A stretch of DNA of 32,000 bases from Aliivibrio fischeri ES114. Its GTDB lineage: Bacteria; Pseudomonadota; Gammaproteobacteria; Enterobacterales; Vibrionaceae. Where the stretch lies: assembly GCF_000011805.1 (NCBI RefSeq), contig NC_006841.2; one strand, given 5' to 3'. Position 1 is the first letter of the stretch; each line of letters starts with the position of its first letter. Positions 6,076 to 32,000 of this stretch are shown piece after piece. The position numbers were made by a program, and so were the translations under genes. A model generated the notes under the pieces. The model worked only from the letters and a program-made list of their open reading frames with translations, did not search any database and was not told the origin of the DNA.

Positions 6076-6903
6076 TTACGCTGTCACGGTAACTTCGTAA
6101 GAGCCAAATTTACGGATGTTGATAACACCTGTATCAAACAGTAGGTATTGACCTTTAATGCCATTAAGAACGCCTGTGACTTCAGGGTTTTTATCAAAGT
6201 TATGGCTTACGATTTTTGTCGGGAACTCATTAACAGGAAACGCGATATCAAGAATGTGCTCGTCTAATAATTCAACAGAATCGTCACCATGCTCAGCTTG
6301 AATCTTTGCAATTGCCGTTTCAACTTGAGGCAATAGTTCTAAAGCCGCTTCTTTTAAAGGAAGTGGATCACCGTTACCTTTTAATAGCGTGCGCCAATTG
6401 GTTTTATCTGCAATGAGTTTTGCTAACTCAATCTCAACTAGGCCTGAAATTAAGCGGTTTTTCACTTTAGCGATAGGCAAACCTTGAGTTGCGCCTTGAT
6501 CAATCCAGCGTGTAGGAATTTGAGTGTGACGGGTAATGCCGACTTTCATACTCGATGTATTTGAAAGATAAACATAGTGATCAACAAAACAATTATCTTC
6601 ACCCCATTGAGGCTCACGGCATGTACCTTCTGCGAAATGGCATGTTTCAGGTTTCATTATGCACATATCGCAACTTGCTAGCTTTTTCATACATACAAAG
6701 CAATGACCTTGGGAGTAGCTTTTTTTGGTTTTCTTGCCGCATGAGCAACAAAAGATATTACCTGTATGAGTAAGAGTTAGCGTTTTACCGATTAAAGGGT
6801 TTAAGCTGATTTCTTCATCTCTGACAGGTAGACGATATTGGACGGTTCCTTCAGATAAAGAAGAACGCATTTTTGCTAATGTTCCAGTAATTTGAATGCT
6901 CAT
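6076..6903 (-). CDS. DUF2797-like Cys-rich conserved protein
   Basis: Cys cluster CCSCGKKTKKSYSQGHCFVCMKKLASCDMC...CHFAEGTC, as in DUF2797 family proteins (family assignment from memory). Confidence 0.6.
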   Translation of the reverse strand: MSIQITGTLAKMRSSLSEGTVQYRLPVRDEEISLNPLIGKTLTLTHTGNIFCCSCGKKTKKSYSQGHCFVCMKKLASCDMCIMKPETCHFAEGTCREPQWGEDNCFVDHYVYLSNTSSMKVGITRHTQIPTRWIDQGATQGLPIAKVKNRLISGLVEIELAKLIADKTNWRTLLKGNGDPLPLKEAALELLPQVETAIAKIQAEHGDDSVELLDEHILDIAFPVNEFPTKIVSHNFDKNPEVTGVLNGIKGQYLLFDTGVINIRKFGSYEVTVTA

Positions 6904-7093
6904 GAACTTTCTACTTTTATTTTTATAAATGAATGTTTATTAGAATAAAACCATTGTAACAAAGTCATGAAAGAGTGTAAGAGCTCAAATGAATATTTAT
7001 ATGCAAGGATAAACGACAATTATGATATACTCGTCACATTAGACCAGAATGACTGGTTATTTATCAATAATACTCGAAATTGGAGTGCAGCTT

Positions 7094-8431
7094 TTGCAAT
7101 TTAAAGATTTAGGTTTAGATAATCGCCTATTAAAAAATCTCGCTCACCAGAACATTAAAACACCAACTGAAATTCAACGTAAAGCTGTTCCTGTTGCTAT
7201 TGCAGGTAAAGATGTTCTTGCGTCGTCAAAAACAGGTTCAGGTAAAACACTGGCATTCGTTTTACCAATGCTTCACAAATCACTGAAAACGAAATCTTTC
7301 TCAAAGAATGATCCTCGAGCAGTGATTCTTGCGCCTACACGTGAATTAGCAAAACAAGTATACAGTCATTTACGTGCAATGCTTGGTGGCTTAACTTATG
7401 ACGCGACATTGATTACAGGCGGTGAGAACTTTAATGACCAAGTGAATGCATTACGCAAGCACCCTAAGTTCATTGTTGCCACTCCAGGACGTTTAGCTGA
7501 CCACCTTGAGCATCAATCTCTGTACCTTGATGGTTTAGAAACACTGATCCTTGATGAAGCTGACCGTATGTTAGATCTTGGTTTTGCTGAGCATTTGCAA
7601 AAGATTCATAAAGCAGCAAGTCACCGTCGTCGTCAAACATTAATGTTCTCAGCAACGCTTGATCACGATGCAGTGAATAAGTTCGCAGGTAACATGCTAG
7701 ATAATCCAAAGCGTATCTCTGTAGGTTTATCGAATGATGAGCACAAAGACATTACGCAACGTTTCTATCTATGTGACCATTTAGATCACAAACAAGCGAT
7801 CTTAAACAAAATCATTGAGACTGAAGATTACTTCCAAATCATGATTTTCACAGCAACACGCTCCGATACTGATCGTTTAACTAAACTATTAAACGAAGAA
7901 AACTTAAAAGCTGTAGCGCTAAGTGGTGATATGAACCAAACCGCTCGTAATAACATTATGAGTCAGTTTGAGCGTCGTGTTCACAAAATCTTAGTAACAA
8001 CCGATGTTGCTTCTCGTGGTTTAGACTTAACAAGTGTAACGCACGTAATTAACTTTGATATGCCTAAGCATATGGAAGAGTATGTTCACCGTGTTGGTCG
8101 TACAGGCCGTGCAGGTAAGAAAGGTACTGCGATTTCTCTTGTTGGTCCAAAAGACTGGGAAAGCTTTAAACGTGTAGAAACCTTCTTACAACAAGATTTG
8201 TCTTTCTCTGTATTTGAAGAATTAAAAGGCAAATTTAAAGGATTGAAACCGAAACATAAGCGTACGTTTGTGAAAAAAGGTGATCCTAAGAAATTTAAAG
8301 CGAAGGGTAATCAAAACAAACCTAAAGCGCCTAAGAAACGTGATAACTCGTTCCATACAAATGTGGCAGTTGGCGATCAGGTATTTATGCCAAAGAAAAA
8401 GCCCAAGCAAATTGTGGTTGATGACGAGTAA
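7094..8431 (+). CDS. DEAD-box ATP-dependent RNA helicase with a Lys-rich C-terminal tail
   Basis: Q motif (TPTEIQ), Walker A SKTGSGKT, PTRELA, DEAD, SAT and HRVGRTGRAG. The track starts at ATG 7049. I prefer the in-frame TTG at 7094, which has GGAG 8 nt upstream and gives the usual M-QFKDLGL helicase N-terminus. Confidence 0.85.
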   Translation: MQFKDLGLDNRLLKNLAHQNIKTPTEIQRKAVPVAIAGKDVLASSKTGSGKTLAFVLPMLHKSLKTKSFSKNDPRAVILAPTRELAKQVYSHLRAMLGGLTYDATLITGGENFNDQVNALRKHPKFIVATPGRLADHLEHQSLYLDGLETLILDEADRMLDLGFAEHLQKIHKAASHRRRQTLMFSATLDHDAVNKFAGNMLDNPKRISVGLSNDEHKDITQRFYLCDHLDHKQAILNKIIETEDYFQIMIFTATRSDTDRLTKLLNEENLKAVALSGDMNQTARNNIMSQFERRVHKILVTTDVASRGLDLTSVTHVINFDMPKHMEEYVHRVGRTGRAGKKGTAISLVGPKDWESFKRVETFLQQDLSFSVFEELKGKFKGLKPKHKRTFVKKGDPKKFKAKGNQNKPKAPKKRDNSFHTNVAVGDQVFMPKKKPKQIVVDDE

Positions 8432-26413: not shown

Positions 26414-26441
26414 AAAAAGCCTGATAATTCAGGCTTTTTTT
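26414..26441. terminator. bidirectional terminator shared by ddl and the recombinase gene
   Basis: AAAAAGCCTGA-TAAT-TCAGGCTTTTT with A and T runs on either side. It overlaps the recombinase stop codon. Confidence 0.7.
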
Positions 26442-27343
26442 GTTTTAAATACAGACTTTTGTCTCTCAGAACGTTCCGTATTACCAATATATTGGTTTGG
26501 CATTGCAGGACTTACCCAACGACCCATCTCTTGTATCTCGTGAATAGAATAACCACGCTGTGCGAGTTCTTTTGTTGCACCTACACGTGCAGATAAACCT
26601 GAAAAGTTTATTTCAAGGTTCAATAACTCATTTGCTCTACGAAATATACGGTATATAGAAGAATCATTTAAACCGTTAACTGCCACATTTTGATGTCTAT
26701 CTATAGCTCTAAATAAATGACCATCATAGATATTTGAATGTTGAAGCCATCTATTGAGTAACTCGGTTGTTTCTTCTGAAATAGCGTAATAATTCTGATG
26801 GATTTGTACCAAGCATGAATTTGTTTCGTCGTTAAAACAAATATCGTCAAGTTGTAAGTCTCGAAGTTCTCCGCGCTTTAGTAGTAATTCAAACATTAAA
26901 TACCAAATGGCAAGATCACGAATGTCTTTGAGTTCAACTGAGTTGAATAATTGATGTCTGAGTTCATCCAGCATATCAGAGGAAATACCTTCCGTTTGTT
27001 TATTATCATTGACCTTATCGACTCTTATTTTTCCTAGTGCAGACTTTACCTGAATGGATTGTGTTGGGTCTTTATACTCAAATGCCGTATGAATATGAGA
27101 TATCGAAATCAGTGCACGTTTTATCGAAGCAAGCTTTTTCACTTTTGCCTGTTTTTCTATGAAGATGCGTATAGCCGTTGTAGAGGCGGGTAGAGCGATA
27201 ACATTATTCAACTGGCAAAATTCGACAAAATTATTCCAATCATTTTTAAATGAAATAAGACTGTTATTTGAGTATTGCTTTGTTAAACACGTTGCTAGTG
27301 TATCGATATCTAATTGTGCTGATAAAAAGTGTTTTTTGTCCAT
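26429..27343 (-). CDS. Cre-like tyrosine recombinase
   Basis: SGLSARVGATKELAQRGYSIHEIQEMGRWVSPAMPNQYIGN parallels Cre SGHSARVGAARDMARAGVSIPEIMQAGGWTNVNIVMNYIRN. The N-terminal FCQLNN..LPA parallels Cre WCKLNN..FPA (Cre sequence from memory). Confidence 0.8.
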   Translation of the reverse strand: MDKKHFLSAQLDIDTLATCLTKQYSNNSLISFKNDWNNFVEFCQLNNVIALPASTTAIRIFIEKQAKVKKLASIKRALISISHIHTAFEYKDPTQSIQVKSALGKIRVDKVNDNKQTEGISSDMLDELRHQLFNSVELKDIRDLAIWYLMFELLLKRGELRDLQLDDICFNDETNSCLVQIHQNYYAISEETTELLNRWLQHSNIYDGHLFRAIDRHQNVAVNGLNDSSIYRIFRRANELLNLEINFSGLSARVGATKELAQRGYSIHEIQEMGRWVSPAMPNQYIGNTERSERQKSVFKTKKA

Positions 27344-27876: not shown

Positions 27877-28188
27877 ATGTCTTTAGTATATTCAACAGAT
27901 GTTGGCCGAATCAAACAAGAAGAACCAAAAGCAGAACGTCCAAAAGGTGACGGTATTGTACGTATTCAACGTGAAACCAAAGGACGTAAAGGTAAAGGCG
28001 TTTGCGTTGTAACGGGTTTGGATATGGAAGATACTCAGCTTAAGTTGCTTGCAGCTCAACTTAAAAAAGTATGTGGTTGTGGCGGCTCTGTAAAAGATGG
28101 CGACATTGAAATCCAAGGCGATAACCGAGAAAAGATTAAAGACTTTCTAACTAAACAAGGCCACACAGTTAAATTAGCTGGTGGCTAA
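27877..28188 (+). CDS. yciH: SUI1-family translation initiation factor YciH
   Basis: LVYSTDVGRI...RPKGDGIVRIQRETKGRKGKGVCVVTGL...KKVCGCGGSVKDG.IEIQGD...VKLAGG is collinear with E. coli YciH. Confidence 0.9.
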   Translation: MSLVYSTDVGRIKQEEPKAERPKGDGIVRIQRETKGRKGKGVCVVTGLDMEDTQLKLLAAQLKKVCGCGGSVKDGDIEIQGDNREKIKDFLTKQGHTVKLAGG

Positions 28189-28353: not shown

Positions 28354-28381
28354 ATTTAACATAAGATATATAATGCGCACT
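28354..28381 (-). other. dif: chromosome dimer resolution site dif (XerC arm, 6-bp centre, XerD arm)
   Basis: The minus strand reads AGTGCGCATTA TATATC TTATGTTAAAT. Both 11-bp arms are identical to V. cholerae dif1 as I recall it. The XerD arm is also identical to E. coli dif. Confidence 0.8.
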
Positions 28382-28438
28382 AGAATGCGGTAAATGAACA
28401 CGAGGAATATGAGGAAATTTATTACGAAGTCTGTTTAT

Positions 28439-28485
28439 AAAAAAACCATGATGGAACACCGCACTCATACTGGTGTCCATCATGG
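28439..28485 (-). terminator. long hairpin plus T-run on the minus strand (terminator and/or ssDNA signal), unit 1
   Basis: CCATGATGGAACACC / GGTGTCCATCATGG arms with loop GCACTCATACT. An A7 run on the plus strand gives T7 after the stem on the minus strand. Confidence 0.55.
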
Positions 28486-28636
28486 GTAATTATCAACACA
28501 AGGCTAGTGGTGTCATTCGATAATTATAAAAAGATTTATTTGGCTAATAAATCTCTATTTATACTCTCACATATTAACATCTATAGTGTTGATGATTATG
28601 AAAAAAAAATAGCAAAAAATGCAATATTGATACGCG

Positions 28637-28720
28637 CTAGCGTATTAATTTAATCTTACGAGCCTTTCTGTCTATTAAATAGAAAAAGCGCCCATTTCTA
28701 TAAATACATTGAACACTCAT
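28637..28720 (-). CDS. candidate 27-aa basic micro-protein (MSVQCIYRNGRFFYLIDRKARKIKLIR), unit 1
   Basis: ATG preceded by GAGG with a 7-nt spacer. The same ORF is conserved in unit 2 and in the prophage. Confidence 0.4.
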   Translation of the reverse strand: MSVQCIYRNGRFFYLIDRKARKIKLIR

Positions 28721-28912
28721 AAACAAACCTCAACACGTTTAAAACCTATCTTTAATGCAGCTCGCAAGCGGCTAAAAATACGCTCACCGCCTCGTTGGGC
28801 CTCTAAAACGTATTTATCAATCAAAAAGGTTATAACCAGAACCTAGAGGATTAATTAATTACCATCTTTGCTTTTTTTAAAGAACATAATCAAATCTTAA
28901 ATTTGATTGTTA

Positions 28913-28940
28913 ACATCACATAATTCATATAATGCGCACT
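28913..28940 (-). other. dif-like junction site (XerC arm plus phage-type centre and degenerate XerD arm)
   Basis: The minus strand reads AGTGCGCATTA TATGAA TTATGTGATGT. Confidence 0.7.
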
Positions 28941-28997
28941 AGAATGTGGTAAATGAACATGAGGAATATGAGGAAATTTATTACGAAGTCTGTTTAT

Positions 28998-29043
28998 AAA
29001 AAAACCATGATGGAACACCATATCCATATGGTGTCCATCATGG
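28998..29043 (-). terminator. the same hairpin, unit 2
   Basis: Same arms as unit 1. The tip is ATAT-CC-ATAT, which lengthens the stem. Confidence 0.55.
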
Positions 29044-29194
29044 GTAATTATCAACACAAGGCTAGTGGTGTCATTCGATAATTATAAAAAGATTTATTTG
29101 GCTAATAAATCTCTATTTATACTCTCACATATTAACATCTATAGTGTTGATGATTATGAAAAAAAAATAGCAAAAAATGCAATATTGATACGCG

Positions 29195-29278
29195 CTAGCG
29201 TATTAATTTAATCTTACGAGCCTTTCTGTCTATTAAATAGAAAAAGCGCCCATTTCTATAAATACATTGAACACTCAT
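29195..29278 (-). CDS. candidate 27-aa basic micro-protein, unit 2
   Basis: Identical to the unit 1 copy. GAGG lies at 29286-29289 (minus strand), 7 nt from the ATG at 29278. Confidence 0.4.
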   Translation of the reverse strand: MSVQCIYRNGRFFYLIDRKARKIKLIR

Positions 29279-29470
29279 AAACAAACCTCAACACGTTTAA
29301 AACCTATCTTTAATGCAGCTCGCAAGCGGCTAAAAATACGCTCACCGCCTCGTTGGGCCTCTAAAACGTATTTATCAATCAAAAAGGTTATAACCAGAAC
29401 CTAGAGGATTAATTAATTACCATCTTTGCTTTTTTTAAAGAACATAATCAAATCTTAAATTTGATTGTTA

Positions 29471-29498
29471 ACATCACATAATTCATATAATGCGCACT
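29471..29498 (-). other. dif-like junction site at the prophage/mini-element boundary
   Basis: The minus strand reads AGTGCGCATTA TATGAA TTATGTGATGT, identical to 28913-28940. Confidence 0.7.
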
Positions 29499-29555
29499 AG
29501 AATGTGGTAAATGAACATGAGGAATATGAGGAAATTTATTACGAAGTCTGTTTAT

Positions 29556-29601
29556 AAAAAAACCATGATGGAACACCATATCCATATGGTGTCCATCATG
29601 G
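29556..29601 (-). terminator. the same hairpin in the prophage, about 300 nt downstream of zot
   Basis: Identical to the unit 2 version. It is the likely terminator of the morphogenesis operon. Confidence 0.6.
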
Positions 29602-29750
29602 GTAATTATCAACACAAAGGTGGTATTACTCGATAATTAAAAAGATTTATCTTTGGGGGTATAAATCTGTATTTAGATTCCCACATATTAGCAACAGTAG
29701 GTTCGTTGATTATGAAAAACAACAGCAAAAAAATGCAATATTGATACGCG

Positions 29751-29831
29751 CTAGCGTATTAATTTAATCTTACGAGCCTTTCTGTCTATCAAATAGAAAA
29801 AACGCCCATTTCTATAAATACATTGAACCAT
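29751..29831 (-). CDS. candidate 26-aa basic micro-protein (MVQCIYRNGRFFYLIDRKARKIKLIR), prophage copy
   Basis: ATG at 29831 preceded by AAGGA (29839-29843) with a 7-nt spacer. An upstream in-frame ATG at 29849 would give 32 aa. The only two nucleotide differences from the mini-element copies are synonymous (CGC/CGT, TTA/TTG). Confidence 0.4.
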   Translation of the reverse strand: MVQCIYRNGRFFYLIDRKARKIKLIR

Positions 29832-29900
29832 TTTGTTATCCTTACTCATTTTTATAGATTAGGTTCGCTACGCTCAGCGAATCCATAAAAATCGAGCTTA

Positions 29901-31085
29901 TTAAAAAACACTCGAGACATTAATCAATGAATCGTCTTTCTCTGATTTAATCGGCGCACCCCGACGAACTGGAGCTATTAAGGCTAACTGTCTTATCTTA
30001 TCAAAGACTAAAAACTCATTATAATCAGGCATTGAAAGCACCGAATAACGGTAACTGTAATTAAAAAGCTCAGTTGGTACAGAGCCTTGCTGTGATTCAA
30101 AATACACCGTTAAGCCTTTGAACTTATCAAAGCCAGTGGCAAAAATGCCCTTGTATTCTAAATCAGGGAATTGATTCACTATCTGATAATTCCCCCCATC
30201 ATAAGTGACGCTGTTATCTTGAAAGCAAATCCCACGAACACAAAAGCTAGGCAGCGAATGACTAGGAACTTGAGTAGAAGTAATGGTGCTTTGCTCATTT
30301 GTTGAAACCTGTTTTTCATAATTTCCCCCTGTAATTAACTCATTATCATAAAGACCATAAAATGAATAAGAGAACAAACTTATAATGAAAAGTGACAGGA
30401 TAACTATTTTTCTGTCTTTCCAGAAAGGCGTACCAGCTAACGTATCCCTAGCCTTGCCCGTTGTTGTGCTCTGATACATTTTAAAAACGTACTTAGGTAC
30501 TTTTTTAATCTCTCTGGTTGTAGCGTGAGAGTCTTGTAAGCCTGAATTGGTAGCATCATGGGTTGTTAAGGTAAATTTAGCTCCTAGACCCATTGTGGCG
30601 CGGTTAAAGTGCCTATAACCAATTTCCGCAGCGTCACGTATCATTCCATGAACCTTGCTAATATTCGGTGTTGTGAGGCAAATATCCCAACCATGGTGAC
30701 GATGCATATCAAATGCTACCTCAAAAGTTTCTGGACGCCCTTCTTCGACTAAATCTGAAGGTGTATCAAGAGCTTTTAGGTTGGCCATAGTTAATTTAGG
30801 CGACCAAATTCGACCGCATTCATCAATAAAAATAAACGCATCTTTAGGTGCCCAATGCCAAAACTTAGCAAGATGAATACGGCCATTAGGATGGTCCGTG
30901 TCTACAAAAATAAAAACAATATCCGATTCATTAATACCAAGGTGTTTAGCGATAACCCCTAGCTTTAAACCACGGATATTAGTAACTATAGGACGGCCTG
31001 ATTTAATCGCAGGAAGAAGCCTAAGCCAGAGTGCTCCCGATGTTTTATAAGAGCCAGGCGCGCCATGATGAACAAAGATACTCAT
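29901..31085 (-). CDS. zot: Zot-like assembly ATPase (inovirus pI)
   Basis: MSIFVHHGAPGSYKTSGALWLRLLPAIKSGRPIVTN... is nearly identical to the N-terminus of V. cholerae Zot as I recall it. Walker A GAPGSYKT and a central TM segment (ILSLFIISLFSYSFYGL). Confidence 0.9.
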   Translation of the reverse strand: MSIFVHHGAPGSYKTSGALWLRLLPAIKSGRPIVTNIRGLKLGVIAKHLGINESDIVFIFVDTDHPNGRIHLAKFWHWAPKDAFIFIDECGRIWSPKLTMANLKALDTPSDLVEEGRPETFEVAFDMHRHHGWDICLTTPNISKVHGMIRDAAEIGYRHFNRATMGLGAKFTLTTHDATNSGLQDSHATTREIKKVPKYVFKMYQSTTTGKARDTLAGTPFWKDRKIVILSLFIISLFSYSFYGLYDNELITGGNYEKQVSTNEQSTITSTQVPSHSLPSFCVRGICFQDNSVTYDGGNYQIVNQFPDLEYKGIFATGFDKFKGLTVYFESQQGSVPTELFNYSYRYSVLSMPDYNEFLVFDKIRQLALIAPVRRGAPIKSEKDDSLINVSSVF

Positions 31086-31366
31086 AATTTAAAAACCTGA
31101 AGTGAAAAGCGAGTTAATAGAGCCTGAATTAAAATAGCAAATACTTTATCTAAACCAAGGTAAAACAGAATGCCACTATATTGTGGCGGTAACATATCTA
31201 TGGCAGATTGAATTTGAGGATAAATAGAAAACATAGAAACAATGTTATTAGATACATCCCAAAAGAATTTGATAATAAATAATTTGCTTTCTAAAAACAT
31301 CTCGGCTAATTCAATAACTAAAAAAGCCACACCATCAACAAACCAAGAGTAAATATAATCCAACAT
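31082..31366 (-). CDS. ace: Ace-like small hydrophobic minor coat protein (pVI analogue)
   Basis: 94-aa hydrophobic protein. Its stop overlaps the zot start by 4 nt, and it occupies the position of CTXphi ace. Confidence 0.65.
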   Translation of the reverse strand: MLDYIYSWFVDGVAFLVIELAEMFLESKLFIIKFFWDVSNNIVSMFSIYPQIQSAIDMLPPQYSGILFYLGLDKVFAILIQALLTRFSLQVFKL

Positions 31367-31372
31367 ATAGCG

Positions 31373-32000
31373 CTACCTTAAAAATATAATCATAGCTGCA
31401 AAGATATAAGCCGCAGCAAGTAATATCTTTCTAATTAAATCCAGATGCTCATTAAATACGGAAAAATCCAAACAGAAATTATAATCAAATGCATCGATAT
31501 AACTACAGAACGAAGGTATGGATGCATGACCAATAAACTCATGCTCTTTTGATTTTGATATTAACGATTCAATTTCATTTTTAAATTTAATTTTCGTTTG
31601 CTCATAACTATTTAATGCAGTTTGAATAGGAATAGAGCACGATTCTTGAGTACAGCTACCCATAACTAAAGAGCCTAATCCGCCTATTTCTGATTTAATT
31701 GAATTAAGAATACTTGTGTAATCTTTTCCACTCCCAGAGCCGCCGCTCCCAGAGTTCATATTGTCATTAATCAGCTTAATCGAAGCGTTAATATCTTGAA
31801 GATTATAATTGATATTTGAATTAGTCATTTCAAGGTTTTGAGAGAGGTTATCAATTTTATCATTAAGCTGAAGAAAGTTTTTATTATCAGAAGAATGAAA
31901 ACCAGAAAGTTGATCGCTCATTTGAATATATCGTTGTGTATTTCTATCCATAGATTCACGTAGATTTACATCTATAGAAGCTGCATATGATAACGTTTTT
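31373..32000 (-). CDS. pIII/OrfU-like minor coat (receptor-binding) protein, N-terminus probably outside the window
   Basis: Gly/Ser linker (SGSGGSGSGK) and a C-terminal hydrophobic anchor (ILLAAAYIFAAMIIFLR). The track starts at ATG 31951, but the frame stays open to position 32000. Confidence 0.6.
   Translation of the reverse strand, partial: KTLSYAASIDVNLRESMDRNTQRYIQMSDQLSGFHSSDNKNFLQLNDKIDNLSQNLEMTNSNINYNLQDINASIKLINDNMNSGSGGSGSGKDYTSILNSIKSEIGGLGSLVMGSCTQESCSIPIQTALNSYEQTKIKFKNEIESLISKSKEHEFIGHASIPSFCSYIDAFDYNFCLDFSVFNEHLDLIRKILLAAAYIFAAMIIFLR

Follow-up and report, generated by a model that had tools for sequence, protein, structure and literature searches.

The window analysed here is a stretch of 32,000 nucleotides from chromosome II of Aliivibrio fischeri ES114 (contig NC_006841.2), and its subject is a pair of short, head-to-tail units that lie between the Xer recombination site dif2 and a filamentous prophage of CTX type. 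The longest contig found to carry the Zot protein of this prophage is 1,330,333 bp. In the window a SUI1/YciH gene (27877-28188) is followed by dif2 itself (28354-28381, minus strand), which reads AGTGCGCATTA-TATATC-TTATGTTAAAT (XerC arm, centre and XerD arm) and was regenerated after the integrations. Unit 1 (28371-28929, minus strand, 559 bp from XerC-cleavage point to XerC-cleavage point) adjoins dif2, and unit 2 (28930-29487, minus strand, 558 bp) adjoins the prophage. Unit 1 is closed by a hybrid Xer site at 28913-28940 (minus strand) with the sequence AGTGCGCATTA-TATGAA-TTATGTGATGT, and an identical site at 29471-29498 (minus strand) forms the junction of unit 2 with the prophage. The prophage continues on the minus strand with its post-zot end (29488-29900), zot (29901-31085; AAW87646.1/WP_011263425.1), whose product is 63% identical to CTXφ Zot, an ace-like gene of the DUF2523 family (31082-31366), and, within 31082-32000, an OrfU/pIII-like gene of which the window contains only the C-terminal part. 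The array was missed by Tandem Repeats Finder solely because the maximum period of that program was 500.

In eight further A. fischeri strains, which have no prophage there, the corresponding locus contains the identical 28-mer, indicating that the site at 28354-28381 is the genuine dif2; in a ninth strain the dif2 centre is the variant TGTATA. With a regenerated dif2 on one side and hybrid sites at the other unit boundaries, the insertion has the form left by IMEXs (integrative mobile elements that exploit Xer). About 1 kb from dif2, and outside the array, a 304-amino-acid open reading frame (ORF) at 26429-27343 (minus strand) contains a weak Phage_integrase domain (4e-13) and is kept at that position in all A. 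fischeri strains examined.

Xer site of the units and their absence from a clonal derivative

The XerC arm of the unit is exactly that of dif2. The centres of the two sites, TATGAA in the unit and TATATC in dif2, have in common the TAT beside the XerC arm and differ at the other 3/6 positions, and the XerD arm of the unit, TTATGTGATGT, is partly degenerate, matching dif2 at 8/11 positions. Each unit has one double-stranded Xer site, and not the inverted pair of CTX-type elements. The VGJ type of IMEX is defined by a single double-stranded attP whose centre is homologous to dif on the XerC-arm side only, and its reaction consists of the exchange of one strand pair by XerC and resolution of the junction by replication, and is reversible (PMC4246890). 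Judged from its sequence, the attP of the unit is of VGJ type. An assignment to the TLC type was rejected, as the TLC type has a centre almost identical to dif and a XerD arm with very little similarity to it, whereas the unit differs from dif at half of its central positions and keeps 8/11 positions of the XerD arm.

The contig L001, a Logan assembly contig of SRR3826939, was compared with the window. In 9,598 bp of chromosomal and 2,501 bp of prophage sequence the identity is 100.000%, against 94-98% for other A. fischeri strains, and the Zot of this prophage was found in ES114 data only, indicating that L001 comes from the same clone as ES114. Both units are missing from L001, in which the prophage end joins AGTGCGCATTA-TATATC-TTATGTTAAAT directly. 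The position of a prophage-type base, 6 nt away from the XerC arm, places the crossover inside 17 bp that hold the XerC cleavage point. Ten 31-mers spanning it do not occur in the window, and the junction can therefore not have come from collapsed reads of the reference type. In addition, about 20 assemblies of sibling samples in this run series terminate at window position 29760, which is the computed branch point of a k=31 graph in which a unit variant coexists with the prophage. The junction of L001 and the branch point of its siblings together show that the units are present in most samples and precisely missing from at least one. Presence in some samples and absence from another, with the junction at the Xer cleavage point, is the mobility that is characteristic of an IMEX. 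The unit is an element of the unusual size of 558 bp, with a VGJ-type Xer site, that was precisely lost in a clonal derivative. A second exact look-up, made with the ace-like protein, led to the two representative places already known and provided no independent assembly with another copy number.

The sample without units also differs from its siblings by a single C/T single-nucleotide polymorphism (SNP) in 11.3 kb, at L001 5962, which is 35 nt upstream of the nick hairpin described below. This SNP may be a coincidence or the sign of a mismatch-repair-deficient line.

Contents of the unit and its relation to the prophage

Read along the phage plus strand, which is the minus strand of the window, each unit consists of the attP, a small hairpin, a G+C-richer core and a micro-ORF with GAGG 7 nt before its ATG, followed by a diverged stretch of ~100 nt with a motif-plus-hairpin, a long hairpin with a run of seven T residues (T7), ~65 nt, and the XerC arm. 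A segment of 192 bp (28721-28912 in unit 1 and 29279-29470 in unit 2, minus strand) is specific to the units and comprises the G+C-rich core and the small hairpin, which in unit 2 lies beside the XerD arm at 29446-29466. The longest ORF of a unit encodes 55 amino acids and none is recombinase-like, so that no integrase is self-encoded, as is the rule for an IMEX. No replication, coat, Zot-like assembly or rst gene was found among the unit ORFs, and those of 43, 45, 48 and 55 amino acids had no record as called genes in an exact-match look-up.

The other ~350 bp of each unit, on the XerC-arm side, is homologous to the post-zot end of the prophage up to ~29849, with an overall identity of 88-90% that is distributed as a mosaic. 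Unit 2 opens with 130 nt (28930-29059) that agree at every position with the prophage end at 29488-29617; identity then falls to roughly 65-80% in a middle part of ~100 nt and returns to 100% in a block of 61 nt. This block (28615-28675, 29173-29233 and 29729-29789) is alike in both units and the prophage, and contigs assembled from short reads end in it. Units 1 and 2 differ from each other only at 28388, 28401 and in the hairpin loop 28461-28470, amounting to seven defined positions in a coherent mosaic, and are identical in their last 459 nt and in everything beyond the first 130 nt. Within the XerC-proximal 130 nt unit 2 equals the prophage, and unit 1 deviates by two SNPs and by the loop of its long hairpin (the 'u1' loop). 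The crossover interval for the mosaic of unit 2 is 31 nt (29029-29059). Unequal homologous exchange explains why unit 2 has 130 nt of prophage type and is of unit type in the remainder, whereas Xer exchange between sisters, or two integrations of one circle, would yield two unit-type copies. On this sequence pattern, the most likely source of the second copy is such an exchange on sister chromosomes, in which the post-zot end recombined with a single resident unit. The tandem state is probably secondary and does not count as evidence of repeated infection.

These results bear out much of an earlier note on the same DNA. The two head-to-tail units of 559 and 558 bp between dif and a CTX-like prophage were found at the coordinates it gave, and the hybrid site, with its phage-type centre and degenerate XerD arm, the homology to the post-zot end (put at ~345 bp), the remainder of ~190 bp that lacks a counterpart in the window, the two conserved hairpins and the lack of replication and morphogenesis genes all proved to be as described. 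Its proposal of an element that integrates through XerCD is supported in part, by the attP-like site and by the exact XerC-type junction of L001. Its statement that the units have no coding capacity holds for replication and assembly genes, but needs amendment for the conserved micro-ORF and its Shine-Dalgarno-like motif.

The micro-ORF (28637-28720 and 29195-29278, minus strand) encodes a basic peptide of 27 amino acids, MSVQCIYRNGRFFYLIDRKARKIKLIR, which is the sole candidate product of the unit. Its GAGG is Shine-Dalgarno-like, and the homologous ORF of the prophage (29751-29849) has its own AAGGA 7 nt before the ATG. The homology between unit and prophage starts exactly at the start codon, the unit contributing its own Shine-Dalgarno-like motif, and the two copies differ by two synonymous changes and zero non-synonymous changes. 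The stop codon sits in a 10-bp hairpin within the 61-nt block. The restriction to synonymous changes, together with the start of homology at the ATG, provides modest evidence that this is a real micro-gene. Searches of the micro-ORF against Pfam and PHROG, a tblastn search of phages, and a scan of viral contigs with a degenerate DNA pattern gave no match.

The long hairpin with its T7 (28446-28485 in unit 1, 29005-29043 in unit 2 and 29563-29601 in the prophage, minus strand) has identical stems in the three copies and a different loop in unit 1. Its folding z-score is about -5, and that of the whole unit folded as single-stranded DNA (ssDNA) of the phage plus strand is -5.2. On that strand the hairpin and T7 appear terminator-like or packaging-signal-like. 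Rfam returned a single sub-threshold match, ctRNA_pND324, for the prophage copy (29550-29633, minus strand; 30.4 bits, below the gathering score of 45), which was treated as a match to a generic hairpin and U-run. A -10-like GATAAT is located just upstream of the long hairpin in all three copies and a short hairpin RNA is conceivable; promoter-like sites were not enriched relative to shuffled sequences. A motif of ~35 nt, TGTTGCTAAT.T.TGGGA.T.TAAATA.AGATTT, accompanied by an A/T hairpin, was observed in the ig-1 region of the prophage (L001 5494-5545) and in its post-zot end (~29640-29700, minus strand), and in a more diverged form in the units at 28520-28590 and 29078-29148. In the circular phage both prophage copies of the motif would flank attP, one on each side.

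The part of the prophage beyond position 32000 was read from ES114-derived contigs found by exact look-up of the Zot protein. The gene order is rstR (helix-turn-helix, reversed), RstA (Rep_trans), RstB, a cep-like gene, a pIII-like gene, the ace-like gene and zot, as in CTXφ. In the scheme of Ma and Zhang, a 'CTX-II' inovirus has rstR and zot as its terminal genes, and the ES114 prophage fits this description. Its far junction reads chromosome-AGTGCGCATTA-TATCCCATGAT-TTATGTTGAG and contains attP1 with an 11-nt centre (L001 5271); attP2, which is inverted, lies ~125 nt further in (L001 5424-5452; reverse complement AATGCGCATTA-TACGAT-TTATGTTACGG). Once rebuilt, the junction of the circle forms a forked hairpin in which the XerC and XerD arms pair round a bubble. 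As predicted from this fold, the prophage attP is a double inverted attP(+) of CTX type, a class that integrates as ssDNA and irreversibly (PMC4246890).

A hairpin of 27 nt, ACCCCCGT-CTAGTATT-ACGGGGGTAAA, lies just upstream of the 3' end of rstR (L001 5997-6023) and is 100% identical in V. cholerae CTX-family contigs (L017 3878-3904). It is the only DNA identity between the ES114 prophage and CTX-family phages, the surroundings being unalignable, and in the V. cholerae contigs it falls within the DNA directly upstream of rstR, where the 167-bp ori(+) is reported to lie. The hairpin is presumed to be the RstA ori(+) nick hairpin. In the nearest relative of the prophage, L031 (Logan DRR671598; Zot 67%), the same stem occurs at ~6153-6177 with the loop TCTGTATT in place of CTAGTATT. 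This relative also has an AAA_21 ATPase gene at 6424-7710, downstream of zot, which is possibly a cargo or defence gene.

When the unit was searched for the nick hairpin ACCCCCGTCTAGTATTACGGGGGTAAA, the best 12-mer match had 4 mismatches and was equalled in 498 of 500 shuffles. Because the nick hairpin is absent, the units would be unable to serve as an RS1-like downstream origin or to be replicated by RstA. For its release by rolling circle a CTX-type prophage depends on a second ori(+) downstream (PMC4439123), and none was found in the 9.6 kb past dif. Judged by the example of CTXφ, the prophage of ES114 is probably unable to leave the chromosome, and its rescue by the units should not be assumed.

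Distribution and explanations of the unit

The 192-bp segment has no further copy in the window beyond its two. BLAST with a word size of 7 detected no similarity between it and the far end of the prophage (L001 5282-6064) or the 21-kb locus. The unit gave no match by distant blastn to 50,697 phage records or to 72,556 plasmids, and scans of viral contigs with the attP flank, the 192-bp core and the shared block yielded 0 matches. A 23-mer scan of species-representative genomes produced one chance match of 23 nt, inside a Roizmanbacteria ORF, and metagenome scans produced 0 matches and then one chance match of 21 nt in a contig of 76% G+C. Ten other A. fischeri dif2 loci contain no unit, and no relative of it was found in the collections searched. 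In a large protein search the closest relative of Zot was P0002 (67%), the sole one nearer than the CTXφ level, and its contigs contain neither unit-like DNA nor the micro-ORF; the Zot relatives in viral contigs were all V. cholerae sequences at the CTXφ level, about 63%. Beside dif2 in another A. fischeri strain (GCA_054880835.1) there is an insert of ~3 kb (L007 10506-13500) with two unassigned ORFs of 138 and 213 amino acids. It was rejected as an IMEX for lack of a second Xer site and is unrelated to the units.

The explanation that we hold to be the best, with moderate confidence, is that the units are a miniature IMEX with a VGJ-type attP, which was added after the CTX-type prophage, was duplicated by homologous exchange and is now a passenger or fossil. 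As to the unit itself, we regard it as a miniature IMEX, probably a defective one. The sequence shows that the CTX-type prophage was the first to integrate at dif2, and that the element of ~558 bp came to lie afterwards between the prophage and a regenerated dif. According to this explanation, the element would represent the non-coding end, with attP, of a filamentous phage that is kin to the resident prophage in its zot-distal ~350 bp only, together with the 192 bp specific to the units. XerC would swap one strand pair and replication would resolve the junction, as in VGJφ, in a reversible process, and the single unit would later have been doubled by unequal exchange with the post-zot end. 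Having neither an RstA origin nor replication or assembly genes, the unit would most likely be a passenger or fossil, and would provide no second origin for the prophage.

Several points weigh against this explanation. XafV (136 amino acids, ORF136) is encoded beside attP in every VGJ-type IMEX surveyed, and integration of a bare attP-VGJ is ~1000-fold below that of attP-CTX; the units, with no ORF above 55 amino acids, encode no XafV. The dependence of the units on XerC and XerD is itself predicted from their sequence. The element was seen in one strain only, which leaves its independent spread hypothetical, and a relative of the 192-bp segment was found nowhere in the collections searched, the rest of the ES114 genome not having been searched by DNA. 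The presence of the units in ~20 siblings and in the 2005 reference points to a loss rather than a gain. The SRR38269xx runs appear, from their date and size, to belong to an ES114 mutation-accumulation study (PMC5854121), and the supplements of that paper contain no event of 558, 559, 1116 or 1117 bp. If the line were mismatch-repair-deficient, homeologous recombination at the very edge of the homology could mimic the loss of the units. Finally, the boundary at the micro-ORF is unlike a random deletion scar, and hints at a selected compact element instead of a fossil.

A scar of deletion in situ is a possible, if unlikely, source of the unit. A VGJ-type prophage, the second to integrate, would have been internally deleted so that only its ends and Xer sites were left, these sites keeping the remnant excisable, and the 558-bp piece would never have been mobile as such. 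Such a history would account for the absence of genes and origin, for the distribution in one strain and for the resemblance that one end bears to the post-zot region of an inovirus, and frequent remodelling of IMEX arrays is known. It would however require that an endpoint of the deletion hit the start codon of the micro-ORF and supplied a well-spaced GAGG, and a parent phage with this attP or this 192-bp end is absent from every collection searched.

An active miniphage or satellite, in which the 558-nt unit is replicated by rolling circle, packaged by a filamentous helper (the neighbour or another ES114 inovirus) and integrated by XerCD, is improbable. The strong ssDNA folding, the post-zot long hairpin in common with the prophage as a possible packaging signal, the recurrence of the motif-plus-hairpin in the prophage ig-1, and a micro-ORF boundary that seems designed rather than accidental are all consistent with it, and a tandem array would permit origin-to-origin rolling-circle release, given an origin. 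Against it stand the missing counterpart of the conserved RstA nick hairpin, the lack of relationship between the 192 bp and the helper origin region, the lack of similarity in the phage records and viral contigs searched, the confinement to a single strain, with ten other dif2 loci of the species empty of units, and a tandem copy that homologous exchange explains better than a second infection does. The earlier note had taken the ~190 bp for the opposite, ori-proximal end of the prophage genome, and had itself named alignment to the far end as the means of refuting this; the far end proved dissimilar. A deletion miniphage of the neighbour is contradicted both by this result and by the single attP of the unit as against the double inverted attP of the prophage, and parasitism of the helper for replication by RstA is ruled out by the missing nick hairpin.

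A related version, to which we give little credence, holds that the unit is the smallest self-contained IMEX, a sub-kilobase phage satellite composed of an attP, a leader or promoter and a peptide gene. The peptide or the conserved hairpins would then promote the Xer integration and excision of the unit or its packaging by a filamentous helper. The micro-ORF is the last gene before attP, a position that may be comparable, by analogy, to those of xafT and xafV in other IMEXs.

It is very unlikely that the duplication is a mis-assembly of the reference. The copy number is beyond the reach of short-read assemblies, but the copies differ at seven positions that form a coherent mosaic. In addition, the branch point of ~20 independent Illumina assemblies is the one that calls for a unit variant beside the prophage, and the unit-less junction of L001 has k-mers missing from the reference. 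The collapse of the repeats to one copy, raised as a caution in the earlier note, is likewise opposed by the mosaic. Least credible of all is a role of the units as an RS1-like accessory that lets the non-excisable prophage release ssDNA genomes, as the earlier note had suggested: they lie immediately downstream in the rolling-circle direction, the correct position for the tandem partner that CTXφ requires (PMC4439123), but termination needs a second ori(+), and the units have neither the nick hairpin that is conserved at 100% between prophage and CTXφ nor any rst gene, and place their own centre and XerD arm, not attP1 or attP2, straight after the XerC arm of the prophage.

If the unit, taken as a miniature IMEX, moves as a circle of 558 bp, the natural size floor of Xer elements falls about five-fold below RS1, and a VGJ-type attP that lacks an Xer activation factor would be enough to bring about integration and excision in vivo. 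As a model ES114 is genetically tractable, and the archived mutation-accumulation reads probably hold data on copy number and excision, so that the rates should be measurable directly.

Comparison with known systems

No IMEX of this small size was described in the literature searched, in agreement with the earlier note, and the unit was compared with the small Xer-associated and helper-dependent elements that resemble it in part. The pdif modules of Acinetobacter are also small, bounded by sites for XerC and XerD and thought to be moved by the host Xer system. They are unlike the unit in being plasmid-borne, in having inversely oriented pdif sites and resistance or other genes, in not being derived from phage and in lying away from chromosomal dif. 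The miniphages of the Ff group (f1/M13) are likewise of sub-kilobase size, built of a structured intergenic region and dependent on a helper. Ff miniphages are derived from the helper, keep its ori(+), its (-) origin and its packaging signal, and do not integrate. The unit differs in lacking the ori(+) of its neighbour and in having 192 bp that are unrelated to it.

Among the satellites of CTXφ and its associates, RS1 (about 2.7 kb) resembles the unit as a small, non-autonomous element in tandem with a CTX-type prophage at dif, but has rstR, rstA, rstB, rstC, an ig-1 with ori(+) and a CTX-type attP, none of which is found in the unit. TLCφ, which is several kb in size (about 4.7 kb), has in common with it a double-stranded attP, a degenerate XerD arm and reversible integration. 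It differs in that its attP centre is near that of dif and is recombined XerD-first via XafT, and that it has its own replication module and encodes the replication protein Cri, whereas the unit has no Xaf or Rep gene and a centre that departs from dif at 3/6 positions.

The closest likeness is to the VGJφ-type IMEXs (VGJφ, VEJφ, VSK, fs2 and the f237 group). These are phages of 6-8 kb with replication and morphogenesis genes and XafV, whereas the unit has 558 bp, none of these genes and no sequence similarity to them. In common with them, it has a single double-stranded attP with a centre that matches dif on the XerC side, it would be expected to need only XerC catalysis and replication for a reversible reaction, and it forms an array with a CTX-type prophage.

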